A stretch of 63,832 bases of DNA from Minisyncoccota bacterium (GTDB taxonomy: Bacteria > Patescibacteriota > Minisyncoccia > Phycocordibacterales > UBA9973): the NCBI GenBank assembly GCA_035714785.1, contig DASTLQ010000016.1:1-63832 (forward strand), read 5' to 3'. Of the stretch, positions 9 to 17,011 are shown one piece after another. The notes under the pieces are model-generated. The model was not told where the DNA came from and made no database searches. It was given only the letters and a program-made list of their open reading frames with translations. How positions within the stretch are numbered: position 1 is the first letter of the stretch; each line of letters begins with the position of its first letter. The position numbers and the translations under genes were made by a program.

Positions 9-983
9 TTACCAGGAAATTTTATTATCCCATGAGGCCAATAATGATGACACCTGTTTTAGGTTTCCCCCGAACCCTCTTAAGGATTGCGCTTGCGACC
101 AAAAAATAGTTGGCGTATCGTCATGATATTGACCGACACAATTCTCAGCAATGGGATGATTTTCTTCGGAAACAGGAATTGGCTGGAAATAACTATTCTC
201 GTCTGCTTTAACAACCAACTCTTCTCCTTCTGTAGTCAGAAGATAGAAATAGTTTGGTTGAAGGGTCGGCATAACCCTTCTAAATGTTGCAATTTTTCCA
301 TCAGAGTTAAGACTCCATTCAAAATGGCGTAATTTTTCCCGGGAAATAGAGTATTTAAATACCCTATATACCTGATCAGAACATATCGCTAACCACCACC
401 TTCCTTCTTTATTAGGAAAAGGGCCTAGTATTTCAACGATATTAAATCTACTCTCAGGTTCGCAAGGAAAGAAAGGTGTTGGATGTGGGTCTATACCACG
501 AACCCTCTCATCCTGTAGACTATTGCGATCCGTATATTCACCAATCTTGTGTATATACATTTCTTTGCGACCACTACAGAATCCGATACTATTACACGAA
601 AATACAAAATGCTTACTAAAGGCTCCATCGCTAGTATAAAGCTGAGTAATCAAATCAAATATTTCGTTTCCACCGGTAGAAAATAATTCATACTTCCCAT
701 ATTTGCACCCTTGAGTCAAAACAATAAATTTATCACTTGTTGTTTTTAATATAATCACCTTTCCATCCAAGAAATGCTTATAGCTCACAAACAGTGTCTT
801 TTGATTGTGTGGCATTAATTCTTTGTCATCCAAAAGAACGATAAATGGTTTTGGTAATGGAATAATGATTTTATTATCATTAAAAAAACCCCAAGAATCC
901 TCAAGTGCTATAGTTTTTATAGCTGGAACACGAATTCTTTCTGACATAACCGGTTGTATCAGGAGATTGAATCTTGTTTCCAT
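9..983 (-). CDS. hypothetical protein (324 aa from METRFN start)
   Basis: Long ORF 9..1073. I prefer the ATG at 983 (METRFNLLIQ...) because the 30 upstream codons are low-complexity. No motif I recognise. Confidence 0.5.
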   Translation of the reverse strand: METRFNLLIQPVMSERIRVPAIKTIALEDSWGFFNDNKIIIPLPKPFIVLLDDKELMPHNQKTLFVSYKHFLDGKVIILKTTSDKFIVLTQGCKYGKYELFSTGGNEIFDLITQLYTSDGAFSKHFVFSCNSIGFCSGRKEMYIHKIGEYTDRNSLQDERVRGIDPHPTPFFPCEPESRFNIVEILGPFPNKEGRWWLAICSDQVYRVFKYSISREKLRHFEWSLNSDGKIATFRRVMPTLQPNYFYLLTTEGEELVVKADENSYFQPIPVSEENHPIAENCVGQYHDDTPTIFWSQAQSLRGFGGNLKQVSSLLASWDNKISW

Positions 984-1099
984 TTTTTTTTCCTTTTTTT
1001 GTGAAATGACTTTTTTATATAATAACATACTTTTGTAATAATGTAAAATTATCGTATTGTTACTGTAAAGCAAATAAATCTTTAATAATGGAGGTTCAG

Positions 1100-1274: not shown

Positions 1275-2483
1275 CTACCTCTTATTAAACGCTTCCTTTG
1301 GAGAAAGGCCTGTAGCGCGGTGAGCGGGCCACCAGCCTGAAACAAAGCCAATAATGGCAGAAATGGCTAGGACGAGTCCTACGAACCACCACGGCACCAT
1401 AAAGAGCTCTATGGCTTTCCCGCCAAATCTTTGTGAAAAGATTGTAAGCACAATATTTAAAATTTTACCTGCCCCGATTCCGAGAGCTACTCCTCCTAAG
1501 CCCCCCAAGAGTCCCATGATAGATGCTTCCACTAAAAATAGATTTCGCACATTGTAGTCTGTCGCGCCGAGAGATTTCAAAATTCCAACTTCATATATTC
1601 TTTCCAAAAATCCGACTAGCATGGTGTTAAACATTCCGATAGCCGAAACCACCAAGGCCGTCACTCCAAACACTCCCAGAATCATAGTCAAAATGTTTGT
1701 AATCTTTCTAGCTTGAGTCACTAGGTCGATACGTGCAGATACTAAAAATCCTTGTTCCAAAAGATTGTCACGCAACTTTTCAATCACTTCAGTATTGTCT
1801 GCTTTGACCATCATCTTTGTGTAATACGGACGAGTTTCTGTCAGAGCTTCTGAAAAAATAATAGCGGTAGTGGTGTCATCATTTATGATACCCATTATCG
1901 GAATCTGTCCGCGAGAATGTACTTCGTCAAAAGTGCTTGATACTTCGTCTTCAAAAAATACTGTAAATTCTAGTGGGGTCCCAAGTGCGGTTTCATCAGC
2001 TTCCATACCAAGAGCAATCAATGTCTGGCTTGAAATCACCAGACCATTTTCCCCTTCAACTGGCGCTTTTCCGATGTCTGGTACCAATCCAGACAATCTA
2101 AAATAAGATGGCTCAATAATACGCACATTGATTAGAACGCCAGTACTATCGATCGCTCCCTCATTTACTTCTCCAGGAAATTCGGACACTGGGCTTACTT
2201 CTGCCACATCTTCGTATTCTCGGATTTCCGCTAGTGTATGTTCGCGAATTAAAATATTTCTTTCTGATGGATAAAAGACTTCCATGCTGATCAAGGAATC
2301 TTCGGTAGTCATCAGTTTACCAATCAAAATATATTGCAAACCATATCCCAATGAAACGAGTAAAAGCACGGTGGCAATTCCCACCGACATACCAGCAATA
2401 GTCAGGATAGCTCGCTGAGGCTTATTCCTAAATGAACGCAACGATAGAGAAAACAATTCTTTTGCTTTTAGGTTTTCTGACAT
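1275..2483 (-). CDS. ABC transporter permease, FtsX/MacB type (402 aa)
   Basis: N-terminal TM helix, roughly 200-aa extracytoplasmic domain, then three C-terminal TM helices typical of the FtsX domain. ATG lies 8 nt after the stop of the upstream ATPase gene. Confidence 0.85.
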   Translation of the reverse strand: MSENLKAKELFSLSLRSFRNKPQRAILTIAGMSVGIATVLLLVSLGYGLQYILIGKLMTTEDSLISMEVFYPSERNILIREHTLAEIREYEDVAEVSPVSEFPGEVNEGAIDSTGVLINVRIIEPSYFRLSGLVPDIGKAPVEGENGLVISSQTLIALGMEADETALGTPLEFTVFFEDEVSSTFDEVHSRGQIPIMGIINDDTTTAIIFSEALTETRPYYTKMMVKADNTEVIEKLRDNLLEQGFLVSARIDLVTQARKITNILTMILGVFGVTALVVSAIGMFNTMLVGFLERIYEVGILKSLGATDYNVRNLFLVEASIMGLLGGLGGVALGIGAGKILNIVLTIFSQRFGGKAIELFMVPWWFVGLVLAISAIIGFVSGWWPAHRATGLSPKEAFNKR

Positions 2484-2491
2484 TTAATATA

Positions 2492-3838
2492 TTATAACTT
2501 TTTTAAAGAGTTTTCGCTAGAATCTGTATCCTTTTTTGTCTCTTCTTCAGCCTCAGGCACTTCTTCTCCCAAGAGAATTTCCAATTTTTCAGATATAAGC
2601 TTTGCTGCGCGGAAAGAAAGACCCGCGCCAAATTTTTTAACCGAAAGATTAAGCACTTCTGCTACTTTCCCTGAATCGATACTACCCTTTAATCGATCTG
2701 CAATCACTTCTTCAATAGCAATCACCTGCATATCCGAAAGTTTTCCAGCATAATCCTCCACAATCCATTTTCTAATATGGTGAATTTCTTCCTTGATAGG
2801 TAGCTCGGGAGATTTTTCAATAATATTGTGAACATGATGAATATCTTCTCTCCGTTCTATTACGCTCTCTATGTACTCAGTCACTCTCTCGCTTTTCTTT
2901 TTCCAAAGTCCCACTCCACCATCTTTAAATGGTCTGTTGATTTTTACTTTAAATTCAGCCTTTGTGATTTTGTTTTCAAATCTTTCACCAACTAAAATTT
3001 CAAAACGATTGATCTCATCCATAGAGTATCCGCGAAGCAAGAAGTTTGCCAAAAGGCGGGCTGACATCTTTTCTTCTGTAGCATGATCGGATCCACCAGA
3101 GAGCTGTTTGTAAAGATTTTTTGAAAGTGACTCTGCCACATTTTTGTTCTCTACTCGCTCCTCATCTGTGATCACTCCGTCTTTCATATGAAAGATTGTT
3201 TTCACATCGCGCAAGCTCCACGCTTCGTGGGTGACCATGATGATGGTTCGTCCGTCTTTTTCGTTGAGTTCTCTCAAAAATTTAAGTACGTTTTGAGCGT
3301 TGGCAGAGTCGAGGTTTCCGAGTGGCTCGTCGGCGATGATTATCGGAGGGTCGTTTGCCAGTGCGCGTGCAATACCTACTCGCTGTTGCTGTCCTCCAGA
3401 GAGCTCATTTGGGTAGCGATCAGCATATTCAGCTATGTTTAAACGCACTAGGAGCTTCATGGCCTCGATTTCAGCCTTTTCAGAGGTAATCCCAACAAAG
3501 AGCATTGGCAACGCCACATTCTTCAAAATATTAAGCGAAGGCACCAAGTTGAATTGTTGGAAGACGATCCCGATTCCTGTCTGACGAAACATCGCCAACT
3601 CTTGGTTTGTTAGCGTTGAAATATCGTGCCCATTGATGGCGATACTTCCTTCCTGGAAACGATCGATCCCAGAGATGGCGTAGAGCATCGTAGTCTTTCC
3701 ACATCCGGACGGCCCGAAAAAGGCGACATAGTCTCCTCGAGTAATTTCAATATTGACGTTATTTAAAGCATGAACTTCTGTGGACTTTCCTTTCTCATAC
3801 CATAAATTAACATTCTCTATTTTAATGATTGAGTCCAT
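2492..3838 (-). CDS. ABC transporter ATP-binding protein (MacB/LolD-like) with about 220-aa C-terminal extension
   Basis: Walker A GPSGCGKTT, signature LSGGQQQRV, Walker B IIIADEP, H-loop VTHE. Residues from about 225 to 448 are an extra charged helical region with no motif I recognise. Confidence 0.9.
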   Translation of the reverse strand: MDSIIKIENVNLWYEKGKSTEVHALNNVNIEITRGDYVAFFGPSGCGKTTMLYAISGIDRFQEGSIAINGHDISTLTNQELAMFRQTGIGIVFQQFNLVPSLNILKNVALPMLFVGITSEKAEIEAMKLLVRLNIAEYADRYPNELSGGQQQRVGIARALANDPPIIIADEPLGNLDSANAQNVLKFLRELNEKDGRTIIMVTHEAWSLRDVKTIFHMKDGVITDEERVENKNVAESLSKNLYKQLSGGSDHATEEKMSARLLANFLLRGYSMDEINRFEILVGERFENKITKAEFKVKINRPFKDGGVGLWKKKSERVTEYIESVIERREDIHHVHNIIEKSPELPIKEEIHHIRKWIVEDYAGKLSDMQVIAIEEVIADRLKGSIDSGKVAEVLNLSVKKFGAGLSFRAAKLISEKLEILLGEEVPEAEEETKKDTDSSENSLKKL

Positions 3839-4286
3839 TCAGATTGTCTGTAAACGAAATAATTTCCTTTGGCATTAATTCCCCTTTGACCAAGTATCCA
3901 TCTATCCCGAGTTCATGAAATTCGTACTCGATCAGTTTTTCTTTTTGGCCAGAGAAAATAATAATCTTTGTGTGATGAAGACTTTTGTTGTGCTTAATTT
4001 TTTTTACAAACTCGAGACTGCGCTTTATGCGCTCATCTGGGCTGTTTTTCCCAGTCTTTAGGGAAACCATCACATCCATGTAAATCACATCAGGATGGGC
4101 TCCTTCTTCGATCATCTTCTCCGCCTCATCAAACGATGAGGCGATGACGATATCATATGCATCACTCCTACCGTGCACCCAAAAGATATCCCTAAAATAT
4201 ATTTTCATCATTTCATCGTCGTCGATGAAAAGTATTTTTGTTTTTTTAGCTAATTTTATTGGTCGCTCTCGTGTGAATGTATGCAT
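3822..4286 (-). CDS. stand-alone response-regulator receiver domain protein (154 aa)
   Basis: ILFIDDDE acidic pocket, phosphoacceptor-like YMDV, IIFSG (Ser) and YLVKG (Lys). No output domain. Overlaps the ATPase gene by 17 nt and starts 1 nt after the giant gene stop. Confidence 0.8.
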   Translation of the reverse strand: MHTFTRERPIKLAKKTKILFIDDDEMMKIYFRDIFWVHGRSDAYDIVIASSFDEAEKMIEEGAHPDVIYMDVMVSLKTGKNSPDERIKRSLEFVKKIKHNKSLHHTKIIIFSGQKEKLIEYEFHELGIDGYLVKGELMPKEIISFTDNLNGLNH

Positions 4287-4287
4287 A

Positions 4288-7200
4288 TTATCTTACGTTG
4301 TTGATGAAGTTAAAGGTATCATCAAAGTTTTTAAAGATGATGTCGACGATTGATTCAGATTTTCTTGGAGTAATAAAGGTGCGGACTGGTGGCTTAACGG
4401 TATTGTTTGCATCATCCGTAGAAGACACTGCAAACCTATATACTGTTGCTGGCTTCATTGCCGAAAGTATTACCAAGTGATTCTTGGTCAATTCAGGATT
4501 TACTATTTTTCCTGAAAGCTCTTTGGTCGAAGATCCTGAACCTTCTTCGAAGTATACTATAGAATCTGAAGGTTCGTCAGTCTGCCATGAAATGATGGTC
4601 TGTACCCTATCAGTCCTACCTGTCACTAGGTTGCTTTCAACTTTTAGGTTTGAAATGACTGGTGGAGTGCTATCAGTCTGAGTGCGGACCGTAATCGGTG
4701 ACCCACCTTCGATTAGATTTCCTCGAGAATTCAATCCTGAAACAGTCACTTCATAAGAAGTGCCTGGTCGTAGGTTTTGAACGTGTACTGAGTGTGAAGC
4801 GGTTCTAGTTTCGTCAGAGATTCTTGATGTAACTCCGGTCGTCATATTTTTGTACTGGACAATCGAAGTAGAAGGTTCATCGGTATTCCATAGAATCACA
4901 AATGAATCTTTTTTAATATCGATTACTGATGCGCGAATCTTAGGAGCCGCGGTAATAAAGGTGTAGTTCGCAGATTTTCCTATCACTTGTGGAAGTGAAA
5001 ATGCTTTAGCCATAAAGTTATATCTGGTATCAGGTTTTAAGCCGATCAACTGCATTTCATGCTCAAGATTTTTTGCGCTGGTGTCAGAGATTTCTCCAGC
5101 ATAAGGGTTATCCAGATTCCTTGATGCTTCATAGTGTGCTTCGTCTGCAAAGCTAATCAATGGAAAGGCCTTTATATTTGTTTTAAATTTAATCACTGCA
5201 CTATTTTCTGTGATACTTGAAATCTCTGGCCGATCTAGGAATGGAGGCACCAAGGATGGCAAGATGGATTCGATCGCAGCTTCGATTTCTTTTTGGAACT
5301 GTTCTATGTTTTCAATATTCTGAAGTTCATCCATCGTTTCGCTCAAGAATTTTGTCTTAAACACTTGCTCAACTGGAGTGCTAATGTTTCCATATTTATC
5401 CATGGCACTCACTCGAATACTATAATCAGTTCCAAGTGTCAGACCATGAAGTTTGATCGAATGTTTTCTCTCAAAGTTTCTATTTGCTACCGTGAAGTCG
5501 TATATTGTAGTTTTACCGTACTCTACAAATCCCATCGCATCTTTATCAATATCAAAGCTTATGATAGCGCTAAATGGTGTGATCCCTGTAACTTCAAGAT
5601 TAGAAATATTTGGCACTACTTTATCCTGCTCTCCAGCTCTAGCCTTCATTAAATTATATTCTGCCAAAAGAGCATCATATACAGATTGCATCACCCCGGT
5701 AATTCCTCCGCCACTACTAATGATGGTCACCTCTATTTCCGGAGTAGTGAAACTCTGCTCTTCGCTTGTGGCCTTATTTCCTTCAGCATCGGTAGATTCA
5801 ATAATGTAGTAGTACGTGGTCTCTGGGGTAAGTTCGGTGAGAGTAATCAAGTGAGTAACCACTAGATTTGCATTTAGATTTGAACTAGAGCCATGGACTC
5901 CAGATGTAGTTCCATACCATACCTGACCATCTGCTACTTCATTTGTGGTCCATACAATAGCTACAGAGTCAGATGTGACGATAGGAGTAGAAATGTTAGA
6001 AATTACAGGAGGGGAAACATCCTCGACATTTACTGTTCTGGTTGCAGTAGCTATTCCGCCATCTGATCCAGTCACGCGATACGTAATGATATTTCCACTG
6101 GATCCGACGGTAGTATCAATGCTGTTAAGAACTGCTCCGTTTGATGCGGTCATAAATACACTGATTTTTTCAGGGTCAGTAATCGCAGTTACGCCATCTG
6201 CTTCCGTGGCAGTTATTCCTGGATCTACAAATACATTTCCAGTATCAAGATTCATTGGATTGTCTCCGAGGATAGTGATGATAGGAGGAACGATGCTGGA
6301 GTTCACGAATGTCACGCTAATAGTATGCGTTTCGGTGACATTGGTGAATGTGTAGCTCTGTGCAGGTGCAAGACTTATACCATCTACTACTAGAGTAGCT
6401 ACTTCATAATTTTCTTCCGGAGTAATCGTGTATGCCTGGCTGGTAGTAGAAGCCACGGCAGTGACTCCATCTGGCGTAATAGTTCCACCTGCTCCCGCTG
6501 TAGCCGTAATATTGTATGTATCTGCCAAAACCACATTTACTGTTCGTACAGCAGTAGCTACATTTCCTGCCGCATCCTCTACTCTATAAGTAATGGCGTA
6601 GCTTCCTATTGCTGTAGTGTTTACCGTTCCCGTTTTTGTAATCGCGCTTGTTAGATCTCCGTCCACAACATCACTAGCTGTTGCACCAGGATCTACAAAT
6701 GCTTCTCCACGTACTACTGACATCGGATTGTTTCCGAGGATAGTGATAGAAGGTGGAGTAGTGTCTAATTCTTCTACAAGTATAAATGTAACGCTAATGG
6801 TATGAGTATTTATCACATTAGTAAATGTATAAGTAGTTCCAGAAACAAGATTTGCTGTAGGATTTAGACTTACTCCGTCTACTACCAAGGTAGCGACAGC
6901 GTAGCCTTCAGCTGGCGTCACCACGTAAGCTTGGTTCGCCGTAGTCGTGACTGCCGTCACTCCTAGAGGAGTGATGGATCCGTTTGCTCCTGCGCTCGAA
7001 GTAATATCGTATGTAGGAGCGAGGGTGACATTTACTGTACGATCCAAAGTGGCTACATTGTCTGAAGTATCTGTAGAAGTATAGGTGAGAGTATAAGTTC
7101 CGATGGTGGCACTGTCCACACTTCCCGTCACTACAATTCCTTCTGTCAGATCACCGTCAACTGCATCGAGAGAGGTAGCACCTGGATCTACAAAGATAGC

Positions 7201-10200
7201 ATCTCGGTATATGTTCATTGGATTATCGCCGAGCAAAGTAATGACTGGTGCTGTGCCATCCTCATCACTATTTACAATAGTGAGGGTGTGAGTAGTATTC
7301 GCACCTAGGGTGGCATTTACAGGACCGGAAAGTGAAATGATGACTGTCTCATCCGGTTCGATTAATCCGTCACTCACCAACGAAGCTGAAATATTTCCTG
7401 AGACACTTCCGGAAGGAATGACCAATGTTCCGCTTGCCAAAACAAAGTCATCGCCGGCAGTTGCCGTACCACCAGTCACTGCGTAAGCCACACTTACCTC
7501 TTCTCTATAAGAAAATGAAAGGTTTACGGGAATGTTTACAGTTCCTGCACTTTCCGCCGATGAAGATGTGCCCTCTGCAAAAGAAACTGTGGGCGCACCA
7601 TCATTGTCTAGGATTGTATAAGTGAATACAGTATTTCCTCCGAGAGTTGTGTTTACTGGATTTGAAATTGTGATTATTACAGTCTCATCCGATTCACTAG
7701 CTACGTCATCTATTACGTTTAAACTAATATTCCCCGTAGTTTCTCCTGCTAGTAATGTAAACACTCCGTTCGCGAGAGTATAATCTACTGCGCTAGTTGC
7801 TGTACCTGTCACAGCGTAGTTTACAGAAATATCTAGAGGATATGCTCGAGCGACTGAAAGGGGAATCAAAACACTAGCCACCGCCTCGTCACCTGATGCA
7901 CTAGTAGAATCAAATGCAATCGAAGGAGCTGTCAGATCAAAGTTGTTTAGAATTCCGATTTCAGAATAGTCATTGTGTGTTGAGAGTGGTCCAGCAGAAG
8001 GGCTTTGATTGTCATGGACCAACACTCTGATACCTGTGTTTGCATAAGCACTTCCAGCTAGAGCGGTCTCATTAAATGTGTTCCAAGATATCGAGCCATT
8101 TTGTCCAGCAGGGATAGTGGTGTTAGTAATGGCAATCGGAGTTGTCGAATTGGCGAGAATCCAAACTGGGGTTCCTGCAAACAAGGTTGGATTAGTCCTA
8201 GTAGTCCTACCAGAGGTATTTAAATCTGGCCATGTACCACGAGTCAAACCACCTAATACGTTTCCTGTTTTTGTAGTATATTTTATAACTTCATTGTTGA
8301 TTTGAATGTATCCTGATGATGGAAGTTTTGAAGCATTAGACACAGTTAGATTTCCTCCTGACAATGCATTTGCCGGTAACGTGATTCCGATGTTGTAGAA
8401 AATATATGCTTCGTATGAAGGATTGGTTTTCTGTGCATTTGAAGCATCAGTCAATCTATATGTGATGGTGACAGTTTTGTCTGCTTCTTGTATTGGTTCA
8501 ACATTTTCTACGGCAGAGGCACTTGCGACGATTCCTCCTCCCCCTTCGTCGTAGTTTTGCACGCCGTCAGGTTTTGCTGTAGTAAATGCTCCTGCGCGGA
8601 TGGAAACGTTGTCGTTGGTGCCTACTACTCCTAATCGATATCTGTAATAAAGATTTGGATTCAAATTTCTATGAACGAAGTAATTTGTAGTTGGATTACT
8701 ATTCCATGATTCTGCCACAGAAGTGAACGATCCATAGGTGATATTGTCCGCTGATGTAGAGAACTCAAGATTGTATGAACTAAATCCGCTAGCTCCTGCT
8801 GATTCCCAACCTACATAAATGTCGTATGAAGGAATTGCTAAGTTTGAAGCATCTTGCACAAAGAATGATGATGCTGCGATTGGGGCTTGGGTGGAAGTCG
8901 AAACTTCTGCGCTGGTATTTCCAAGCGCATCTCTAAATTGATATTTGATTGTCTTTACCTCTATATCACTATCAAATGTCCACGGGATAGTAGTGCTTTC
9001 AGTAATTGCCGTCCAGCCAGTGTTGGTAGGATTTGAGTGCGTTGCAGAATCATCACTGATTAAATATTCTACAGCAGAAAGATCTGTCGGCATCGGAATA
9101 GTGATAGTGGCAGAGTCTGTAAGTCCTGCTACACCTGCATCAAAAGTTACAGGAGTCACTACTGGTGCTTTCACGTCGAGGGTAAAGTTTGCTGTAGTCG
9201 AAACAGCTGTGCTGTTTGCTGCTTCACCGTCGCTCACCGTCACTCGCACGCGAGCATTATTGATAGAAGTTTCAGGAATAGTTAGGGCAGCATTCCATGT
9301 AGCAGTATGTACTGTGTATGCTGCTTCTTCTACACTTTTTAGAGAAACGTCGCTTGCCCCCAAGTGATCAGATGGAATTGCATTCCATGTACTTCCTCCG
9401 TTTACACTATATTCAAATGATGGAAGAACCTGACCAGGAGTAGCGGTTCCTAAAGTTGCATCTACGTCGCGAACGCTATATGAAATTGCAACTTTAGCAA
9501 AATCAGCACTTCCGGAATCCGTCACCTGACTTGCGGTAGAACCTGATCCTGCTTCTGCAGGATACGAAGTGTTGAAGTTTGGCGCCACGTTTATCACATA
9601 CTTGAAACTGATAGATGTCACTACAGGGCTTACTCCTCCACCTGAGGCAAGGAATACTTTGTATTGTAAGTATCGGTCGTTGTCTCCACCCATCAGAGGA
9701 TGTCCCGCTTGAAGCGACACGTCGTTGTGCGCTTGTTCAAAATAAGTAGAACCCGAACAGTCAGCATAGCCACACCATGAAGTCCAGGTAGAATTATTTG
9801 GGGAAGATCTGACTTGAAACTTCACAGTTTCAGTTCCCGATGTATTTGTAGCTGACCATAAAATTTTTCCAAATAAGCTAGTGGCATCTGCCGTATCAAA
9901 CACAGAAGAAGTAAGGTCTCCGGAAGTATATGTAGTGTAATTGAAAGTAATAGAATCAAACGAAGGAGTTACTGTAATATTACTTGTCGATAAATTTGCT
10001 CGGAACTGTACGTATCGTGCAGGAGCAATTGATGAGATATCTGCACCACTTGCAAGATTTGTCTGCCAGCTAGACCAAGTGCCATCTGGGCTTGGTGTAT
10101 TTCCGGCTCTCACATCGACAGTAATAGTCTGTCCGTATAATACTCTACTATAGTCAACTGTGCTCAAGGACACACTGCTTCCCATATCCACAACCGGAGA

Positions 10201-12987
10201 GGTATAAGTACCGCTAGAGTAATAAGAAAGATTTCCTCCCACTGTACTGAAATTAATCAGTGTACCGTCGATCACATTTACTGGAGTGCTTCTGTTTGTA
10301 GTAGTGGTGTCTCCGAGTTGGCCTTGATTATTTTGTCCCCATGCCCAGACTGTACCGTCAGATTTTATAGCCATTGAGTGGTATGCTCCTCCTTGTACCG
10401 CAGTAATATCGGTAAGAAAATCAGCGCCATCAGGACTTTTTACCTGTACCGGAGTATTTCTATTAGTAGTTGAATTATCACCTACTTGACCGGCGTTGTT
10501 GTATCCCCATGCCCATACAGTACCGTCGGATTTTAGTGCCCGACCACCGAACATTGAACTTTCAATTTGTGTTATGCCTGTTAGAAATCCTGTTCCTCCC
10601 GGGCCTACCGCTTGTACAGGTGTATTTTTTGCTGTGTTTGTACCATCTGCAAGTTGGCCATAACCATTTGCCCCCCATGACCACACTGTACCGTCTGATT
10701 TCAAAACATGTCCAGCACCCCCATTAAAAGGCTCTCCATCAGCTACAACCTGAATCGCGTCGGTTAAAAATCCTGAACCACCCAGACCTACCACTTGTAC
10801 AGGTGTTCTTCTTTCTGTAGTGGTACCGTCACCGAGTCTACCACTTCCATTATTTCCCCATGCCCATACTGTTCCGTCGGATTTCACTGCATACCCGCTA
10901 TGACTCGATGCTGCAATATCTACCACATCAGTCAAAAATCCCACTGCTCCAGGACCAAGTACTTGCGCTGGAACACTTCGGCTAGTAGTCGTATTGTCTC
11001 CAAGTTGTCCGCTACCATTGTCTCCCCAAGCCCACACTGTACCATCGGATTTTAATGCATATGATGCACCGCTAAAATATGCGTATGAAGGTTTGGTTAC
11101 TTTTATTACATCAGTCAAAAATCCAACACCACCAGGACCCACTACCTGCACTGGAGCATTTCTCTGTGTAGTTGAATTGTCTCCCACTTGCCCATACGAA
11201 TTGTACCCCCATGACCACACTGTGCCGTCGGATTTTACAGCCATCGCTCCAAAGTTTCCAGCAGCGATCTCTACTACATCTGTCAAAAATCCAACACCGC
11301 CAGGACCTTTCACTTGCACAGGATTATCTCTCTTTGTAGTCGTATTATCACCTAGCTGTCCCAAGTTATTTTGTCCCCAAGCCCACACTGTGCCATCGGA
11401 TTTTAATGCGTAAGAGCTACTATCTCCTGCAACTATTTTTGCAATTTCGACATCACCAAGCGCAAGCGCAGTATATGCCAATACTTGGATAGGTGAGTTC
11501 CTTTGAGTATTTGTATTATCACCAAGCTGGTTTGAACTGTTCAGTCCCCATGCTCGCGCCGTACCATCAGAATGAAGTGCATAACCGCTAGCACTTCCTC
11601 CGGCAATATTTACTATGTCAGTCAAAAATCCTGAAGCACCTATTCCCACCACCTGCACAGGAGCATTTCTCTGAGTTGTAGTGTTGTCTCCAAGTCTGCC
11701 TGATCCGTTTGATCCCCATGACCATACTGTGCCGTCGGATTTCAAGGCATATGCGTTTGCGTCTCCTGCCATCACTTTAGATACACCAGTCAGAAATCCC
11801 GTGCCACCTGTTCCAAGTACTTGCACTGGAGTATTTCTTTGAGTGACAGTGTTGTCTCCAAGTCTGCCTGATCCGTTTGATCCCCATGACCACGCTGTTC
11901 CATCAGATTTCACAGCGTATCCTGATGCATCTCCTCCAGCAATTTGCACCACATCAGTCAGGAATCCAACTCCTCCCACGCCCTGTACTTGCACTGGAGT
12001 AGTCCTCTGAGTTGTAGAATTGTCGCCGAGTCTTCCTGATCCGTTTGATCCCCATGACCATACTGTGCCATCGGATTTCAAAGCATATCCGTTTGCGCTT
12101 CCGCCTGCTACTTTTATTACTCCTGTTAAGAATCCCACTGCTCCAGTTCCGAGTACTTGCACTGGAGAGTTTCGCTGAGAGGTAGAATTGTCGCCTAATT
12201 GTCCGGAACTATTTTGTCCCCATGCCCAAACTGTTCCGTCGGACTTCACCGCGTATCCAGAATAATCTGCTGCACCGATAGAAACTACGTCAGTTAAAAA
12301 TCCGACTGCTCCAGGGCCAACAACTTGCACAGGAGTAGTCCTCTGGGTTGTAGAATTGTCGCCAAGATTTCCGTGAGCATTGTATCCCCAAGCCCACACC
12401 GTTCCGTCTGACTTAAGAGCATAGGCACTATTTTCTCCGGCCGCAATTTCAATTATTCCAGAGAGTACGCCCGTTCCTCCTGGACCGAGCACCTGAACCG
12501 GCAAGGACCGACCCGTAGTAGTACCGTCACCAATTTGCCCATAACCATTGTAACCCCATGACCACACTGTACCGTCTGCTTTTAGATAGTGAACAGTATT
12601 GCTGTTGGAAGCAATCATGGCAGTAGTCGAGCTACTGAGATCCACGCTCAATTCCACTGAACCTCCATCTGTAACGCGAGTTTGAGAATTTGTTCCACCA
12701 CTAAAATCTGCTTGGGAAGTTTTTGTATTAGAGAGTTGTGTCGGAGTGATTGAAATCGTGGAGCCCGCTTCCGTTCCGCTCTTTGACGAATACTGTGTCC
12801 AGTCTGTCTGATTCATTCCGTGCACTGCTCCGTTTCCAGTTGCCCCACCGCTCCAACTTGATTGCGTGTAATCATATGTTACAGCGCTGGCAACCTCGGG
12901 ACTAATTAATTGTCCCAAGATCATTACGATCGCAAGAACGGTTGAAAAAAATATTTTCCAGTTAACTCTCTTAATAAATGTACTCAT
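4288..12987 (-). CDS. giant secreted/surface protein (2,899 aa): signal peptide, 14 RCC1 blades, beta-sandwich modules, 2 Calx-beta, 3 Ig-like (DUF5011-type) + B-repeat-like pairs, 5 Fn3/PAP-N-like domains
   Basis: N-terminus KIFFSTVLAIVMILGQLISPEVASA is a Sec-type signal. There are 14 copies of KSDGTVWAWGxNxxGQLGDN...PVQV (RCC1). Calx-beta-like segments include AVDYTL..GETTGNISLNVIDD..ESDETVIITISNP. PVITLLGDNPM..VDPGATA.D.VDGDLT is Ig-like and occurs three times. The C-terminus has five Fn3-like units (e.g. SVAIVWTTNE..DGQVWYG). Confidence 0.9.
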   Translation of the reverse strand: MSTFIKRVNWKIFFSTVLAIVMILGQLISPEVASAVTYDYTQSSWSGGATGNGAVHGMNQTDWTQYSSKSGTEAGSTISITPTQLSNTKTSQADFSGGTNSQTRVTDGGSVELSVDLSSSTTAMIASNSNTVHYLKADGTVWSWGYNGYGQIGDGTTTGRSLPVQVLGPGGTGVLSGIIEIAAGENSAYALKSDGTVWAWGYNAHGNLGDNSTTQRTTPVQVVGPGAVGFLTDVVSIGAADYSGYAVKSDGTVWAWGQNSSGQLGDNSTSQRNSPVQVLGTGAVGFLTGVIKVAGGSANGYALKSDGTVWSWGSNGSGRLGDNSTTQRTTPVQVQGVGGVGFLTDVVQIAGGDASGYAVKSDGTAWSWGSNGSGRLGDNTVTQRNTPVQVLGTGGTGFLTGVSKVMAGDANAYALKSDGTVWSWGSNGSGRLGDNTTTQRNAPVQVVGIGASGFLTDIVNIAGGSASGYALHSDGTARAWGLNSSNQLGDNTNTQRNSPIQVLAYTALALGDVEIAKIVAGDSSSYALKSDGTVWAWGQNNLGQLGDNTTTKRDNPVQVKGPGGVGFLTDVVEIAAGNFGAMAVKSDGTVWSWGYNSYGQVGDNSTTQRNAPVQVVGPGGVGFLTDVIKVTKPSYAYFSGASYALKSDGTVWAWGDNGSGQLGDNTTTSRSVPAQVLGPGAVGFLTDVVDIAASSHSGYAVKSDGTVWAWGNNGSGRLGDGTTTERRTPVQVVGLGGSGFLTDAIQVVADGEPFNGGAGHVLKSDGTVWSWGANGYGQLADGTNTAKNTPVQAVGPGGTGFLTGITQIESSMFGGRALKSDGTVWAWGYNNAGQVGDNSTTNRNTPVQVKSPDGADFLTDITAVQGGAYHSMAIKSDGTVWAWGQNNQGQLGDTTTTNRSTPVNVIDGTLINFSTVGGNLSYYSSGTYTSPVVDMGSSVSLSTVDYSRVLYGQTITVDVRAGNTPSPDGTWSSWQTNLASGADISSIAPARYVQFRANLSTSNITVTPSFDSITFNYTTYTSGDLTSSVFDTADATSLFGKILWSATNTSGTETVKFQVRSSPNNSTWTSWCGYADCSGSTYFEQAHNDVSLQAGHPLMGGDNDRYLQYKVFLASGGGVSPVVTSISFKYVINVAPNFNTSYPAEAGSGSTASQVTDSGSADFAKVAISYSVRDVDATLGTATPGQVLPSFEYSVNGGSTWNAIPSDHLGASDVSLKSVEEAAYTVHTATWNAALTIPETSINNARVRVTVSDGEAANSTAVSTTANFTLDVKAPVVTPVTFDAGVAGLTDSATITIPMPTDLSAVEYLISDDSATHSNPTNTGWTAITESTTIPWTFDSDIEVKTIKYQFRDALGNTSAEVSTSTQAPIAASSFFVQDASNLAIPSYDIYVGWESAGASGFSSYNLEFSTSADNITYGSFTSVAESWNSNPTTNYFVHRNLNPNLYYRYRLGVVGTNDNVSIRAGAFTTAKPDGVQNYDEGGGGIVASASAVENVEPIQEADKTVTITYRLTDASNAQKTNPSYEAYIFYNIGITLPANALSGGNLTVSNASKLPSSGYIQINNEVIKYTTKTGNVLGGLTRGTWPDLNTSGRTTRTNPTLFAGTPVWILANSTTPIAITNTTIPAGQNGSISWNTFNETALAGSAYANTGIRVLVHDNQSPSAGPLSTHNDYSEIGILNNFDLTAPSIAFDSTSASGDEAVASVLIPLSVARAYPLDISVNYAVTGTATSAVDYTLANGVFTLLAGETTGNISLNVIDDVASESDETVIITISNPVNTTLGGNTVFTYTILDNDGAPTVSFAEGTSSSAESAGTVNIPVNLSFSYREEVSVAYAVTGGTATAGDDFVLASGTLVIPSGSVSGNISASLVSDGLIEPDETVIISLSGPVNATLGANTTHTLTIVNSDEDGTAPVITLLGDNPMNIYRDAIFVDPGATSLDAVDGDLTEGIVVTGSVDSATIGTYTLTYTSTDTSDNVATLDRTVNVTLAPTYDITSSAGANGSITPLGVTAVTTTANQAYVVTPAEGYAVATLVVDGVSLNPTANLVSGTTYTFTNVINTHTISVTFILVEELDTTPPSITILGNNPMSVVRGEAFVDPGATASDVVDGDLTSAITKTGTVNTTAIGSYAITYRVEDAAGNVATAVRTVNVVLADTYNITATAGAGGTITPDGVTAVASTTSQAYTITPEENYEVATLVVDGISLAPAQSYTFTNVTETHTISVTFVNSSIVPPIITILGDNPMNLDTGNVFVDPGITATEADGVTAITDPEKISVFMTASNGAVLNSIDTTVGSSGNIITYRVTGSDGGIATATRTVNVEDVSPPVISNISTPIVTSDSVAIVWTTNEVADGQVWYGTTSGVHGSSSNLNANLVVTHLITLTELTPETTYYYIIESTDAEGNKATSEEQSFTTPEIEVTIISSGGGITGVMQSVYDALLAEYNLMKARAGEQDKVVPNISNLEVTGITPFSAIISFDIDKDAMGFVEYGKTTIYDFTVANRNFERKHSIKLHGLTLGTDYSIRVSAMDKYGNISTPVEQVFKTKFLSETMDELQNIENIEQFQKEIEAAIESILPSLVPPFLDRPEISSITENSAVIKFKTNIKAFPLISFADEAHYEASRNLDNPYAGEISDTSAKNLEHEMQLIGLKPDTRYNFMAKAFSLPQVIGKSANYTFITAAPKIRASVIDIKKDSFVILWNTDEPSTSIVQYKNMTTGVTSRISDETRTASHSVHVQNLRPGTSYEVTVSGLNSRGNLIEGGSPITVRTQTDSTPPVISNLKVESNLVTGRTDRVQTIISWQTDEPSDSIVYFEEGSGSSTKELSGKIVNPELTKNHLVILSAMKPATVYRFAVSSTDDANNTVKPPVRTFITPRKSESIVDIIFKNFDDTFNFINNVR
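10265..12600 (-). repeat. tandem coding repeats of about 165-168 bp (RCC1 blades)
   Basis: An identical 44-mer gtgttgtctccaagtctgcctgatccgtttgatccccatgacca occurs at 11681-11724 and 11849-11892. A third close copy lies near 12035. The 14 units give 55-56 aa periodicity. Confidence 0.85.
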
Positions 12988-13334
12988 GGTTATGTTTGTG
13001 TGACTAATAATTATTATAATAATTTAATTATAAAATTTATGAATATATGACACAAGCAAATTTCACCAATTCTTAATGGCAATAATTGAGAGCAAATATG
13101 AGGAAAATTTTTGAGCAAAATTTTTAGTGAAAATGGATAATAAGCGAAAATTTTTTTACCTTTGGGGTCGAAAAATTTTGTTATTTCGGAGAGGAAAATC
13201 ATCCAGACAGAGTGGTCTTCACTGACAATATATAGTAGAAGAATCCTCCTTAATCCAACCCCCCTGGACTTTTTTGTATTTTTTCTAATTTGGTGACTAT
13301 TTTGAGAATTCTGTAACAAACCTTTATAAAAATT

Positions 13335-13396
13335 CTAAACCTTACTAAAGTAAGGGTCGGAATTACGAAAAATTTTAGTTGTTTAGTAAGGTTTAG
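13335..13396. promoter_or_regulatory. 15-bp inverted repeat (candidate operator) in the divergent promoter region
   Basis: ctaaaccttactaaa at 13335-13349 and its exact reverse complement tttagtaaggtttag at 13382-13396. An inner palindrome ccttac-taaa-gtaagg is also present. TATAAT-like atataat at 13401-13408 lies just before ATG 13414. Confidence 0.45.
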
Positions 13397-13413
13397 TAAT
13401 ATATAATATACGC

Positions 13414-13716
13414 ATGGAGAAAAAATACCTTACTATCAAAGAAGCCGCCAAGAAGCTTGGTGTATCATCTCTCACTCTTCGCAACTGGGACAACGCCGGC
13501 AAACTCACCGCTTACAGGCATCCTATAAACAACTATCGTGTGTATCTAGCCATGGAAATTGACGAAATAATTTCCAAAATTGAGAACGGCGAGAAGCCAC
13601 TAAAGCACTCTCGTGAACCAAAAAAATCCGTCAAAAAATCACATACCAAAAACTCCGATTCCGGAGTTATCCACATCCATTCTGTGAAATGTGAATGTGA
13701 AGAGCACCACCACTAA
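13414..13716 (+). CDS. MerR/excisionase-type HTH DNA-binding protein with Lys-rich linker and Cys/His-rich C-terminal tail (100 aa)
   Basis: YLTIKEAAKKLGVSSLTLRNWDNAGKLTAYRHPINNYRVY matches the MerR/HTH_17 fold pattern. The tail is IHIHSVKCECEEHHH. Confidence 0.8.
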   Translation: MEKKYLTIKEAAKKLGVSSLTLRNWDNAGKLTAYRHPINNYRVYLAMEIDEIISKIENGEKPLKHSREPKKSVKKSHTKNSDSGVIHIHSVKCECEEHHH

Positions 13717-13798
13717 TTGTAAGGCCACCACCCTTACACGACTTGCTTGACAAAAGATTTCGTTGTGCTATAATATATGTAAATAATTTGGAGTACAA

Positions 13799-13924
13799 AT
13801 GAGTTTCACTGATTTTATAGATATATTAAATTTTCAAATTCTTGGTGGACCCCGAGTGATTCATCTGATTTTGATTTTAGTAATATTATTTTTAGTGGGA
13901 GGGTTAGTCTCATTTAAAAAATAA
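13799..13924 (+). CDS. possible small membrane protein (41 aa, MSFTDFIDILNFQILGGPRVIHLILILVILFLVGGLVSFKK)
   Basis: TTGACA 13747-13752, 16-nt spacer, TATAAT 13769-13774. GGAG at 13790-13793 lies 5 nt before ATG 13799. A terminator follows immediately. Confidence 0.45.
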   Translation: MSFTDFIDILNFQILGGPRVIHLILILVILFLVGGLVSFKK

Positions 13925-13932
13925 AAAATTAG

Positions 13933-13956
13933 GCGCAGAGAAATCTGCGCTTTTTT
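13933..13956. terminator. bidirectional intrinsic terminator
   Basis: GCGCAG-agaaat-CTGCGC followed by TTTTTT, with an A-tract upstream. It lies between the convergent small ORF (+) and murF (-). Confidence 0.7.
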
Positions 13957-13968
13957 ATTTCGCTTTTT

Positions 13969-15261
13969 TTATTTCTTCTCCAACCACTCTTTATCTTGGC
14001 GAACTAAAAGTTCAGATTTATTTTTTTGATCTAAGAGGATAGCTTCCACTGCCCTCTCCATTCGCATACCTTGTGAACCTTTCAACAAAACTAGATCTCC
14101 GGCACCAACATTCTGTTTCAAAAATTCTCCGGCTTCTACTGAGTTTGAAAATTGAAAAATCTTTTCGATAGGCATTCCTGCTTCGATTGCTCCTTCGCGG
14201 ATTTTTTCTGCGCGAGGTCCGACTACCACGAGCATGTCAGAATTTTCTGCAGACAATTTTCCAACAGTCTTGTGCGCTTCTTCAGTGTGCTTTCCTAGCT
14301 CCAGCATATCTCCAAGCACTGCTATCTTTCTCATTGCCTTCACTCCCCCTAAAGTTTTGATTGCAGCTTCACTAGCAAACGGTGACGAGTTGTATGTATC
14401 GTCTATGATGAGTGATCCATTTATTCCATCAAGCAATCTCATTCTACCCGGGGGCACGTCGTGATTTTTTAGAGCCTGCGCTGCTTCGAGCATTTTCCAT
14501 TTCATACCGGAGGCTAGAGCAAGAGTGGCAAGTGATGCATAGATGTGATTTCTTCCAAATACTCCTTCGATGATTACGGGAATACTCATCCCTCCTTCGT
14601 CTACTCGAAAGATCACTCCTTTTGGTTTTCCTGCTTCGTCATAGAAAACATTTTCTCCAGAAGCCTGCACTTGTACGTCATCGCTAAATCCATAAGTCAC
14701 GATTCTGTTCTTGGTTTTTTCTTTCATTCCCAAGATGGCTTCATCGTCGGCATTAAGCACCAAGAGTCCGCCAAAACGCAAAGTATCGATCAGTCCGCTT
14801 TTTTCTTCGATTAAATCTTTTCTAGAATTATAAAATTCAATATGAACAGGAGTGTCGCCGATGGCAGTCATGATCACAGCATCGGTCTGTAGCCACGAAG
14901 CGGTAGTTTTCATGTCTCCGGGCTTTCCTACCCCTACTTCTAGTACAAGCCATTCTGGATACTTATGAGGCCACAGAAAGAGCCACAGCCCTTTCAGGAT
15001 ATTCTTTGCCCAGATTGTAGGGCTATTCCATCCATTTGGAAGACCTAGGATAGTGAGCGGAAGGCCGAGCTCGCTGTTGTAGCTCTTTTCGCTTTTTCTA
15101 ACGTATGCGATTTCTTTTAGAGCCGAATACACTGCATCCTTGGTAGATGTCTTTCCCACAGAGCCGGTAATAGCGATTATCTTTGGACGATATTTCCAAA
15201 GTACGAGCTCAGACTCAGCTCTTAGAATCATTGCTAAAGATTTTTTTACATTTTTTCTCAT
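13969..15261 (-). CDS. murF: UDP-N-acetylmuramoyl-tripeptide--D-alanyl-D-alanine ligase
   Basis: Mur ligase P-loop ITGSVGKTSTKD and the MurF-typical DDTYNSSP motif. Located directly downstream of ftsI in the dcw block. Confidence 0.85.
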   Translation of the reverse strand: MRKNVKKSLAMILRAESELVLWKYRPKIIAITGSVGKTSTKDAVYSALKEIAYVRKSEKSYNSELGLPLTILGLPNGWNSPTIWAKNILKGLWLFLWPHKYPEWLVLEVGVGKPGDMKTTASWLQTDAVIMTAIGDTPVHIEFYNSRKDLIEEKSGLIDTLRFGGLLVLNADDEAILGMKEKTKNRIVTYGFSDDVQVQASGENVFYDEAGKPKGVIFRVDEGGMSIPVIIEGVFGRNHIYASLATLALASGMKWKMLEAAQALKNHDVPPGRMRLLDGINGSLIIDDTYNSSPFASEAAIKTLGGVKAMRKIAVLGDMLELGKHTEEAHKTVGKLSAENSDMLVVVGPRAEKIREGAIEAGMPIEKIFQFSNSVEAGEFLKQNVGAGDLVLLKGSQGMRMERAVEAILLDQKNKSELLVRQDKEWLEKK

Positions 15262-15295
15262 ATATATTTTTTAAAGCGCGGTGCTCCGCAGATTT

Positions 15296-17011
15296 CTATC
15301 TATCAGGAGGCACTTCATAGTAATTTATCAAAAATTTTGACAGGCTTAGAAACGGATCTACCCATGTCTGTGAAGCATACTGTGTTCCTTTTGGATTTGT
15401 TGCGTACAGGAGCACGATAAACCTCGGTTCGTAAGCTGGGAAATACCCGAAGAAAGAGTGGGTATTCCTGTCGGCATAGTAACCTCCTTTTACGGGATCT
15501 GCAACCTGAGCAGTTCCTGTTTTTACTGCCATACTGTATCGATCCATTTTCGCTTTTCCGCTCTGAATTCCATCATCCATGATGTTTACGAGCATTCTAG
15601 TGATTTCCTCTGATGTTTCCGCGCTGATTTTAGACTGAGAAGTGGGGTACTCTATAATTTCTTCCTTTCCATTTTCGTATTTAATTTTCTTTACCAAGTG
15701 AGGAGTGACCAATTTTCCACCGTTTCCAAGTGCTGCCAATGCTCGAATCATTTCTACGGGAGTGAGAGCAATACCCTGTCCAAAGGAAGCGTTTGCATAC
15801 TCTAGATCTCTAGGGGAATTTAGATTTGTGACCAAGCCACCAGTTTCGTTTGGTAAATCGATACCAGTTTTTTCTTTTATTCCATATGAAAGAAGATACT
15901 CACGTAGATTTTCTTTACCAAGCTTTCTATAAGTGAATACCATTCCTGTGTTGAGTGACTGACTCAATGCTTCTTGAATGGTCACCACTCCTCGAGCTTT
16001 TCTATCGAAATTGAAAATCTCTTTTTTTTCTACTTGAACAGATCCCCGATCATCATATGTAGTATTTGCCGTAATCACCCCACGATCAAGCCCTGCTGCG
16101 ATTACAAGCGGTTTTACGATCGAACCGAACTCAAGCACATTTTCCACTAATGGATTAGAAAAAATACTATTCGAGCTAGCTTTAGAAAAATTGTTTGGAT
16201 CAAATGACGGCAAGGATGCCATAGCATATATAGAGCCATCTATTGGATCCATGATGATACCTCCCATAGTATCTACTCGATATTTTTCTTTTACTTCAGA
16301 GAGCGTTTTTTCAAGAAATCCTTGCACTATTGGCTCTATAGTAATCACTATGTCGCCTTTTTTTGTTTTTGTTTCAAAAAGTGATTCGCTGATGTTTGAA
16401 AAAACTTCTGCAAAGAAATTTACATATGGTTCATCTTTGTCGCGCGAGAGAAGCTCATCGTACTGTCTTTCAAGGCCATAGCGCCCGCCCAATTCTTCAC
16501 CCCTATATCCCACAAATCCTAAGGTCTGAGCAGCCATTTCGTTCCCAGGATAGAATCTCCATTTTTCCCGATATATCATCACCCCTGACATGCTTTGAGA
16601 AGAAATTGTATCAGCCTGTTCCTTTGTGAGTCTATTTGATATTTCTTCGTAAGGATCATCTTTCTTGCTTGCTTTATCTAAAAATGATTTTTGATCAAGA
16701 GTCGGAATGACTTCTTTTAAGGCATTAAAAACTTTTTCATCATTGGAAAGTTTACCCGGGATGATGGCCAGTTTAAATCCAGTAGACTGGGTGGCCGCCG
16801 AAACTAGCTCACCGTTTTTCTGTTCAAAAAAAATAGTGCCACGCTCAAAAAGTAGCGAGGCGTTGGTGGCATACTGTCGATCAGCTCTGTTCGAATATGA
16901 TTCCGAGTTTACAACTTGTACTAAAAAGAGTTTGGTGATTAAAACACCCGCACCGAAAATTATTACAAAAATAAGAATTCTATCTCGGGAGAAAAAACTC
17001 TTAAATTTCAT
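15296..17011 (-). CDS. ftsI: penicillin-binding protein, class B transpeptidase (FtsI/PBP2-like)
   Basis: N-terminal TM anchor, SxxK (SIVKP), SxN (SQSLN) and KTG (KTGTA) motifs. dcw position after ftsL. Confidence 0.9.
   Translation of the reverse strand: MKFKSFFSRDRILIFVIIFGAGVLITKLFLVQVVNSESYSNRADRQYATNASLLFERGTIFFEQKNGELVSAATQSTGFKLAIIPGKLSNDEKVFNALKEVIPTLDQKSFLDKASKKDDPYEEISNRLTKEQADTISSQSMSGVMIYREKWRFYPGNEMAAQTLGFVGYRGEELGGRYGLERQYDELLSRDKDEPYVNFFAEVFSNISESLFETKTKKGDIVITIEPIVQGFLEKTLSEVKEKYRVDTMGGIIMDPIDGSIYAMASLPSFDPNNFSKASSNSIFSNPLVENVLEFGSIVKPLVIAAGLDRGVITANTTYDDRGSVQVEKKEIFNFDRKARGVVTIQEALSQSLNTGMVFTYRKLGKENLREYLLSYGIKEKTGIDLPNETGGLVTNLNSPRDLEYANASFGQGIALTPVEMIRALAALGNGGKLVTPHLVKKIKYENGKEEIIEYPTSQSKISAETSEEITRMLVNIMDDGIQSGKAKMDRYSMAVKTGTAQVADPVKGGYYADRNTHSFFGYFPAYEPRFIVLLYATNPKGTQYASQTWVDPFLSLSKFLINYYEVPPDR

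Follow-up and report, generated by a model that had tools for sequence, protein, structure and literature searches.

The C-terminal base of giant surface proteins is inherited with a MacB-type ABC pair in Parcubacteria

We analyzed a 63,832-nucleotide (nt) stretch of DNA (the window; GenBank assembly GCA_035714785.1, contig DASTLQ010000016.1) from a Patescibacteria (Candidate Phyla Radiation) genome. Its minus strand carries a gene for a giant surface protein, followed by genes for a CheY-like receiver, an ATP-binding cassette (ABC) ATPase with a long C-terminal extension, and a permease. We find that the base module and tail at the giant's C-terminus, the extended ATPase, and a MacB-type permease with four transmembrane (TM) segments are inherited together across deep divergence and in several gene orders, and that the base module can be part of the giant or a secreted protein with a gene of its own. 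Since Type VII ABC transporters as a rule have an extracytoplasmic partner protein and act by mechanotransmission (PMC12646458), the giant could be physically coupled to the ABC pair, which would transmit mechanical work to it. These genes may thus specify an undescribed, Parcubacteria-specific surface apparatus built around a Type VII (MacB-fold) ABC complex, with the base and tail of the giant docked on the permease, a model to which we assign a probability of roughly 0.55 from sequence.

Searches with the full-length ATPase, including its extension, recovered more than 100 relatives at 63-72% identity, the best of them labelled Paceibacterota, Nomurabacteria, and similar. Gene maps of three relatives revealed a giant with Calx/Ig/Fn3 domains, a receiver of 144-147 amino acids (aa), the ATPase, and a MacB_PCD/FtsX permease, in surroundings that differed. 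An alignment of the ATPase extension alone, used as a query against one genome per species (185,579 species), identified 27 true loci, labelled Paceibacteria, Nomurabacteria, Kaiserbacteria, and others. By tblastn, the permease lay directly downstream of the extended ATPase in all 27. For the 21 loci that were informative (at least 2.3 kb of sequence upstream of the ATPase), tblastn placed the C-terminal module of the giant directly upstream in 20. The last 279 aa were 57-66% identical in 19 of the 21, while one locus (L029) keeps the final 56 aa only, at 61% identity. The receiver was present in 16 of the 21, and its 17-nt overlap with the ATPase gene (3822-3838 in the window) was kept in 13 of 19 distinct receiver-bearing loci; ATPase-permease gaps were mostly 3-31 nt. 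As the arrangement recurs in dozens of independent loci and the 17-nt overlap is kept, it exceeds what chance would produce. Thus, the gene neighborhood that an earlier first-pass annotation of this DNA had proposed to compare among related genomes is co-conserved across Parcubacteria.

We also searched from the other end, using an alignment of the tail alone against metagenome contigs. This search retrieved 80 loci, of which 71 were informative (at least 1 kb downstream). An ABC ATPase lay directly downstream of the tail in 39 of the 71, and 37 of these ATPases belonged to the extended family, 28 with a receiver and 9 without. Among the 32 loci with no downstream ATPase, the giant extends past the end of the fetched sequence in 20, so that the upstream side could not be judged. 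Six of the 12 judgeable loci had a receiver, ATPase, or permease upstream, including divergent (L079, L083, and L093) and permuted, co-directional (L096 and L110) arrangements. Adjacency was thus found in at least 45 of the 71 loci, or 45 of the 51 where both sides were visible, in three gene orders. Since adjacency survives rearrangement, selection for linkage explains it better than the plain inheritance of a single operon.

Kaiserbacteria-type loci (L035-L037) revealed the module in split form. Here the giant (7738 or 4851 aa) is followed, in this order, by a base protein of ~500 aa, a 440-aa ATPase, and a permease, with no receiver. The separate base protein has the same five-domain layout as the base module of the window's giant and ends in the tail FTPIQEKNIIDLILENFESTFGWVKNI. 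Two stand-alone base proteins, P0156 (from L037) and P0145, carry their own N-terminal signal peptides. A distant analogue (L041) combines a Kelch propeller protein and a 901-aa Fn3 protein with a degenerate tail with a plain ABC ATPase and a MacB_PCD/FtsX permease. One homologue (P0141) ends in a TM helix instead of the tail and has no ABC neighbor.

Comparison of these loci also revealed which part of the giant is conserved. The first-pass annotation had proposed the giant as a whole as the partner of the ABC pair; the conserved piece is not its RCC1/Calx/Ig part but the C-terminal module of five Fn3 domains with its tail. RCC1 heads were present in only 2 of 21 related loci (L019 and L020), and the N-terminal part at other loci contained Big_12, Lcl_C, DUF2341/pentaxin, or nothing recognizable. 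Because the head varies while the base is conserved, the RCC1 head is not the conserved partner, and the last ~570 aa are the part of the giant that travels with the ABC pair. In the window, the 14 RCC1 repeats of the head would form about two seven-bladed propellers. The stalk that follows gave no PDB sequence match and no significant Pfam match over residues 961-1700, and its second half is 43-68% identical in many loci (tblastn). The Bact_surface_Ig-like repeats beyond it are the DUF5011 family named in the earlier annotation.

To describe the base module, we used Pfam, which found five Pur_ac_phosph_N stretches, and an AlphaFold2 (AF2) model from a 37-sequence alignment (predicted local distance difference test, pLDDT, 85.6), which contained five Fn3-like sandwiches, two helical linkers, and a terminal helix. 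That helix is the tail. The last 28 residues of the protein are near-invariant (...TPxxxESIVD[VI]IFKNF[DN][ED]TFNF[IV]NNV[RK]), and a 13-residue core occurs once per locus, always ending 5-6 residues from the stop. The tail is matched by no NCBIfam or Pfam model and contains neither a TM helix nor a basic stretch after the motif. By hydropathy, the giant has one N-terminal hydrophobic segment (residues 12-30) and no C-terminal TM segment.

The tail helix is strongly amphipathic, with a high hydrophobic moment, and these properties would also suit a different role for the ABC pair, resembling that of LolCDE. After Sec export, the tail would lie in the plane of the outer leaflet as an anchor, and a single extraction by the ABC complex would release the giant, pass it on to the wall or surface layer, or shed it in response to a signal. 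Such a complex would serve in assembly or release and would not be a permanent dock. This idea draws on the same synteny evidence as docking does; moreover, LolC/E/F are among the closest solved permeases, and LolCDE and YbbAP pull hydrophobic anchors or lipids from the outer leaflet (PMC12646458). However, the polar face of the tail is invariant, which suggests protein recognition rather than lipid embedding. Also, the Fn3 base of ~570 aa that co-varies with the ABC pair is larger than an extraction signal should need, and no LolA-like carrier is conserved in the operon. We consider such a role unlikely.

In the docking model, the presumed site of contact is the large extracytoplasmic domain of the permease. 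Pfam assigned this protein to FtsX (PF02687; 6.2e-16, 59 bits against a cut-off of 25.5) and, over residues 26-241, to MacB_PCD (PF12704; 2.1e-10, 41.7 bits against a cut-off of 27). Hydropathy peaks at residues ~25-57, 264-282, 315-349, and 360-378 mark four TM segments, and together these data bear out the MacB/FtsX-type topology that the first-pass annotation had described. Scores against curated families were far below their cut-offs. These were 65 bits against 966 for the MacB equivalog; 47.4 against 362 for LolCE (TIGR02212), 29 against 473 for LolC, and 30.9 against 439 for LolE; and, for the FtsX models, 38.3 against 255 (TIGR00439), 35.2 against 225 (NF038347), and 23.3 against 250 (NF038346). 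The nearest solved chain was YtrF (4.5e-21), followed by MacB, pneumococcal 5xu1, and LolF/C/E, with FtsX last. Judged by these matches, the protein is a Type VII (MacB-fold) ABC permease outside every curated family, and membership in a family with another known partner, which the earlier annotation had held open, was not found.

The FtsX scores bear on a second alternative, in which the ABC pair does for this lineage what FtsEX does elsewhere, and the giant is a scaffold of the wall or septum rather than an adhesin. The FtsE score of the ATPase almost equals its LolD score. In addition, the neighbors of the module include mraZ-mraW-ftsI-murE or ftsA, located on one side or the other and in varied orientation, in the window (13969-24460) and in L075, L079, L080/81, L083, L086, L098, L022, and L038; at L038 mreB is also near, and at L002 the module is near YceG. 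However, flanking genes vary in most loci, the permease falls far short of every FtsX cut-off, and the giant contains no LytM, CHAP, NlpC, or hydrolase domain (Pfam) and no long coiled coil. Wholesale swaps of the head (RCC1, Big_12, Lcl_C, or DUF2341) fit an exposed recognition surface. We therefore hold a division or envelope role of this kind to be improbable.

We characterized the ATPase, in which Pfam recognized ABC_tran (residues 25-173; 1.1e-33) and no family in residues 225-448. Its best NCBIfam matches were LolD, FtsE, DarD, DevA, and MacB, and all five motifs (Walker A, Q-loop, signature, Walker B, and H-loop) were present. The C-terminal extension is conserved in 120 clusters, with a mean top-residue frequency of 0.74 over residues 225-430. 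An AF2 model of the extension contained nine helices (pLDDT 69), and hhalign showed the first half of the extension to be homologous to the second (90.7%, E 1.3e-6). A fold search of the PDB gave nothing significant (best E 0.099, to TFIIB), and Pfam at E up to 1 gave noise only. Among 1.84 billion representative proteins, the profile of the extension found only 242 clusters (50% identity), and in the examples checked by Pfam it was always fused to ABC_tran. The extension is thus a family-specific, unannotated domain. Some distant relatives of the ATPase have N-terminal extensions, which we considered as candidate fused receivers. No Response_reg was detected in those of P0285, P0304, and P0349 (Pfam E up to 0.001), and these extensions and that of P0257 are mostly charged and of low complexity, as judged by eye and not by alignment to the receiver.

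With both halves of the ABC pair described, two further alternatives can be weighed. In one, the functions are unrelated, and the pair serves in efflux or in resistance to antimicrobial peptides, as a pump of the MacB/YtrEF/BceAB type that merely shares an operon with the giant. Pumps of this type are widespread and frequently have a link to response regulators; YtrF is the closest solved permease, and the solved chains closest to the ATPase include BceA and PsdA. However, the linkage persists when genes are reordered or inverted and whether the base is fused or split, and tail and base are as conserved as the pump itself. Moreover, the TM-anchored homologue P0141 occurs without a pump, and the neighborhood has no conserved gene for a membrane-fusion protein, bacteriocin, or sensor kinase. 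In the other, export works in the manner of a type 1 system: the ABC pair moves the giant across the membrane, guided by the tail as a secretion signal that is not cleaved. Giant adhesins of Gram-negative bacteria bear C-terminal signals that are read by an adjacent ABC exporter, and the tail is likewise C-terminal and adjoins an ABC system. Against this idea, N-terminal signal peptides occur on the giant and on the base proteins P0145 and P0156, neither a membrane-fusion protein nor an outer-membrane factor accompanies the pair (no HlyD-type gene was found in the window operon or related loci), and the four-TM MacB fold has no known transmembrane path for a substrate (PMC12646458). Since the linkage survives rearrangement and N-terminal signal peptides are present, both alternatives fit poorly; there is little likelihood that the pair is an unrelated pump, and a type 1 exporter is very improbable.

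The receiver is CheY-like and without an output domain, scoring 32.9 bits with Response_reg (PF00072; 7.9e-8) against a cut-off of 30.2. In an alignment of 19 distinct homologs, the phospho-acceptor Asp, a Ser, and a Lys were invariant, and the acidic pair was mostly kept; the family motifs are FRD.FW.HG and KG...PK. Its sequence looks like that of a working phospho-switch. A Pfam scan of all sizeable open reading frames (ORFs) in the window detected no histidine kinase (HisKA/HATPase_c), as the first-pass annotation had stated for the window, and none was found in the called genes of related loci.

Several observations weigh against the docking model, or against parts of it. The first concerns the receiver, for which no gene is present at 5 of 21 genome loci, at 9 of 37 metagenome loci, or at any Kaiserbacteria-type (split) locus. 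Since it is missing from about a quarter of loci, it cannot be essential and is an accessory regulator, not a core part of the unit as in the earlier view. The ATPase extension, too, occurs with or without a receiver gene, and thus is not simply a receiver dock. L031 contains the ABC pair with no giant within 9 kb. Conversely, a tail-bearing gene with no ABC gene in the visible flank was found at six metagenome loci, and L039 (labelled Terrybacteria) has a tail-bearing Fn3 gene and no ABC pair within 8 kb. The AF2 model of the base module has only short linkers and lacks a long coiled coil of the kind found in EnvC/PcsB. Finally, the recurrent proximity to the division and cell wall (dcw) genes may be synteny retained from an ancestor, or it may hint at a role linked to the envelope.

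In the mechanism we propose, the giant would be exported by Sec and its signal peptide cleaved. The base and tail would dock on the extracytoplasmic domains of a permease dimer, leaving the variable head (here two RCC1 propellers) to face outward, away from the cell, and cycling of ATP would act on the giant. Where present, the CheY-like receiver would be phosphorylated by a kinase encoded elsewhere and would switch or gate the ATPase, while a MerR-type protein, at loci that have one, would control transcription. We also put forward, tentatively and as a possibility read from sequence, that the tail helix is a new sorting or anchoring signal for surface proteins that is read by a MacB-type ABC. 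In that case, the complex would act as an ATP-driven actuator under phospho-regulation, by which the main host-contact protein of Parcubacteria is extended, retracted, or released.

The ORF list reproduced all coordinates and the tight packing of the four minus-strand genes given in the first-pass annotation, and its domain calls were confirmed by Pfam (Table 1). Only 1 nt lies between the TAA stop of the giant and the receiver ATG, and the ATPase-permease spacer is 8 nt. A simple pattern scan placed no terminator-like site at the internal gene junctions, where a terminator would have spoken against a single unit; the hairpin beyond the permease is likely the operon end. A pattern scan for promoters was uninformative (33 sites against 33 expected).

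Table 1. Positions of the module, its domains, and adjoining elements in the window.
Feature	Positions	Strand	Basis or remark
Terminator-like hairpin, 8 bp (5 GC), then T run	1229-1250	minus	25 nt past the permease stop
Permease	1275-2483	minus	402 aa ORF
Extracytoplasmic MacB periplasmic-core domain of the permease, aa ~58-262	1698-2312	minus	~205 residues between TM1 and TM2
ATPase	2492-3838	minus	448 aa ORF
C-terminal extension of the ATPase, aa 225-448, all-alpha, two homologous ~70-aa repeats	2495-3166	minus	
ABC nucleotide-binding domain, aa 1-224, LolD/FtsE/MacB clade	3167-3838	minus	NCBIfam LolD 1.9e-59, FtsE 1.8e-57, both below cut-off
Receiver	3822-4286	minus	154 aa ORF
Giant	4288-12987	minus	2899 aa ORF
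C-terminal tail ITPRKSESIVDIIFKNFDDTFNFINNVR, amphipathic helix	4291-4374	minus	ends 5 residues before the stop; tail alignment
Conserved base module, five Fn3/Pur_ac_phosph_N-like sandwiches and two helical linkers, aa 2331-2899	4291-5997	minus	
Three Bact_surface_Ig-like domains, aa ~1961-2330	5998-7107	minus	PF16403 2e-42, 3 stretches
Two Calx-beta domains, aa ~1701-1960	7108-7887	minus	PF03160 1.5e-19, 2 stretches
Middle stalk, no known family, aa 961-1700	7888-10107	minus	tblastn segments
Variable head, 14 RCC1 repeats, aa ~120-960	10108-12630	minus	PF00415 1.7e-120 in 14 stretches, PF25390 4.6e-165
Predicted Sec signal peptide, aa 1-35	12883-12987	minus	hydrophobic segment; inferred cleavage site between ...VASA and V
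Intergenic region between giant and helix-turn-helix (HTH) gene	12988-13413		426 bp, AT-rich
Divergent HTH gene	13414-13716	plus	100 aa ORF

The divergent HTH protein matched MerR (PF00376; 9.2e-11, 41.8 bits against a cut-off of 28.2) and also reached the excisionase-type model TIGR01764 (29.6 bits against 28.8); no effector domain was recognized. Homologs lie divergently upstream of the giant in L002/L003 (52% identity) and L038 (55% identity). The divergent regulator described earlier is thus present as a MerR-type gene but was seen in only three lineages. Just upstream of the gene in the window is a 15-nt perfect inverted repeat, CTAAACCTTACTAAA / TTTAGTAAGGTTTAG (13335-13349 / 13382-13396). 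The segment from 13335 to 13396 contains palindromic half-sites (CCTTACT/AGTAAGG), with three copies of AGTAAGG, and may be the operator of the MerR-type protein; the repeats upstream of the L038 homolog differ from those in the window. The earlier annotation had called the region between the giant and the HTH gene an AT-rich leader. Its size and AT-richness hold (GC is 0.33 across 13001-14000, a section that includes most of it), but the region is intergenic, and nothing indicates a transcribed leader. We rejected a structured leader RNA as a candidate, as an Rfam scan of the window detected six tRNAs only and no family in 12988-13413.

Beyond the HTH gene, the plus strand has a perfect sigma-70 consensus at 13747-13774 (TTGACA, 16 nt, TG, TATAAT) and a GGAG site. 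A 41-codon hydrophobic ORF (MSFTDFIDILNFQILGGPRVIHLILILVILFLVGGLVSFKK; 13799-13924, plus) follows this promoter, between the HTH and Mur ligase genes, and after it comes a strong bidirectional terminator (13931-13952). The flanks of the window carry mraZ, mraW, ftsI, a Mur ligase gene, ftsA, and ftsZ. On the other side of the operon, beyond its putative terminator, ORF 9-1073 (minus, 354 aa) has no Pfam or NCBIfam family and no homolog in related loci.

Related loci contain additional genes. At three, all of one sub-lineage, a protein of ~630-650 aa with N- and C-terminal hydrophobic segments is encoded between the giant and the receiver (L021 2717-4627, L023 845-2737, and L024 3661-5613); these proteins are 51-66% identical to one another and absent elsewhere. 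Since the window's ORF 9-1073, a 572-aa gene of L001, this ~630-aa TM protein, and a 614-631-aa gene of L035/L037 are mutually unrelated, each is specific to its lineage. In L029, a Kaiserbacteria metagenome-assembled genome, positions 1-2400 contain duplicate 244-aa IS200/IS605-type (Y1 transposase-like) genes, each flanked by the last ~56 codons of the giant, an arrangement which suggests that insertion at the 3′ end of the gene for the giant happened repeatedly. In L039, a 160-aa prepilin-type (N_methyl) gene (2567-3049) starts 4 nt past the tail-bearing Fn3 gene. Some record labels are doubtful: L018 is filed as 'Burkholderiales bacterium', and L007, L008, L020, and others as 'uncultured Candidatus Saccharibacteria'. 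These oddly labelled loci are probably mis-binned or generically labelled contigs.

Elsewhere in the window, we noted a 504-aa protein with a Por_Secre_tail domain (46695-48209, plus; E 4.8e-12), the C-terminal sorting domain of type 9 secretion; this is unexpected in a Patescibacteria genome, which should lack that system. Two adjacent genes of the GH130 (mannoside phosphorylase) family occupy 28905-31989 (minus), and one encodes a 645-aa protein whose N-terminal 330 aa are unexplained. A PemK/MazF-type toxin gene (36349-36804, minus) has a 49-residue N-terminal extension.

Parcubacteria/Paceibacteria are ultra-small, are among the most abundant uncultured bacteria, and are thought to live attached to other cells; to our knowledge, how their surface proteins are anchored and controlled has not been established. 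The module offers a testable candidate, with one giant per locus, a defined 28-residue tail, and one ABC machine. Type VII ABC systems are known to work with hydrolase activators, a lipoprotein carrier, an efflux duct, and a lipid hydrolase. If the docking model is correct, giant structural or adhesive proteins would be a new class of partner for these mechanotransmitters, and if the complex is also an actuator, it would represent a new functional class of Type VII ABC and the equivalent, in monoderms, of regulated retention of giant adhesins. Our analysis also defines two unannotated sequence families, the two-repeat helical extension of the ATPase and the SIVDxIFKNFxxTFxF tail, and the latter could mark the principal surface protein in these genomes.

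The first-pass annotation had named no described system that couples a receiver, a MacB-like engine, and a giant adhesin, and our full-text literature search agrees, as it found no description of this gene arrangement. A preprint on giant genes (10.1101/2023.11.21.568195) does not mention ABC or FtsX neighbors. Known systems share parts of the design. Like FtsEX with EnvC, PcsB, CwlO, or RipC, the module has a separate ATPase of the LolD/FtsE clade and a four-TM FtsX-domain permease beside a secreted, unanchored partner, on which ATP hydrolysis would be expected to act across the membrane. In contrast to FtsEX, the permease has a full MacB_PCD domain (~205 aa) in place of a small FtsX loop and failed the FtsX models; the partner is an Fn3/Ig/Calx/RCC1 giant without a hydrolase or activator domain or a long coiled coil; and the ATPase has a unique extension of ~220 aa, often with a receiver. 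MacAB-TolC, LolCDE-LolA, and YbbAP-TesA have the same MacB-type topology and periplasmic core, and in these systems function is set by the partner (PMC12646458). Our loci differ from these in having no membrane-fusion protein, LolA-like carrier, or hydrolase, and no TolC or Lol partners.

In its logic, the module resembles LapA-LapBCE with LapD/LapG, and SiiE-SiiCDF, in which a giant repetitive adhesin with an important C-terminus is encoded beside an ABC system and its retention is controlled by a signal. LapBCE and SiiCDF are type 1 exporters that include a membrane-fusion protein and an outer-membrane factor and act on substrates without Sec signals, whereas here the ABC has a MacB fold, the giant has a Sec signal, and a CheY-like receiver would provide the input. 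BceAB-BceRS also ties an FtsX-domain ABC to two-component signaling, and BceA is among the nearest solved ATPases. However, BceB has 10 TM segments and operates with a full kinase and a DNA-binding regulator, while the module has a four-TM permease, an output-less receiver with no kinase nearby, and a giant partner. Last, the tail is comparable to LPXTG, PEP-CTERM, PGF-CTERM, and the C-terminal domain of type 9 secretion substrates, each a short, conserved signature at the extreme C-terminus that is genomically tied to a membrane machine. It differs from them in having no TM helix, basic tail, sortase, or exosortase-type enzyme, and in that the machine to which it is tied is an ABC complex.

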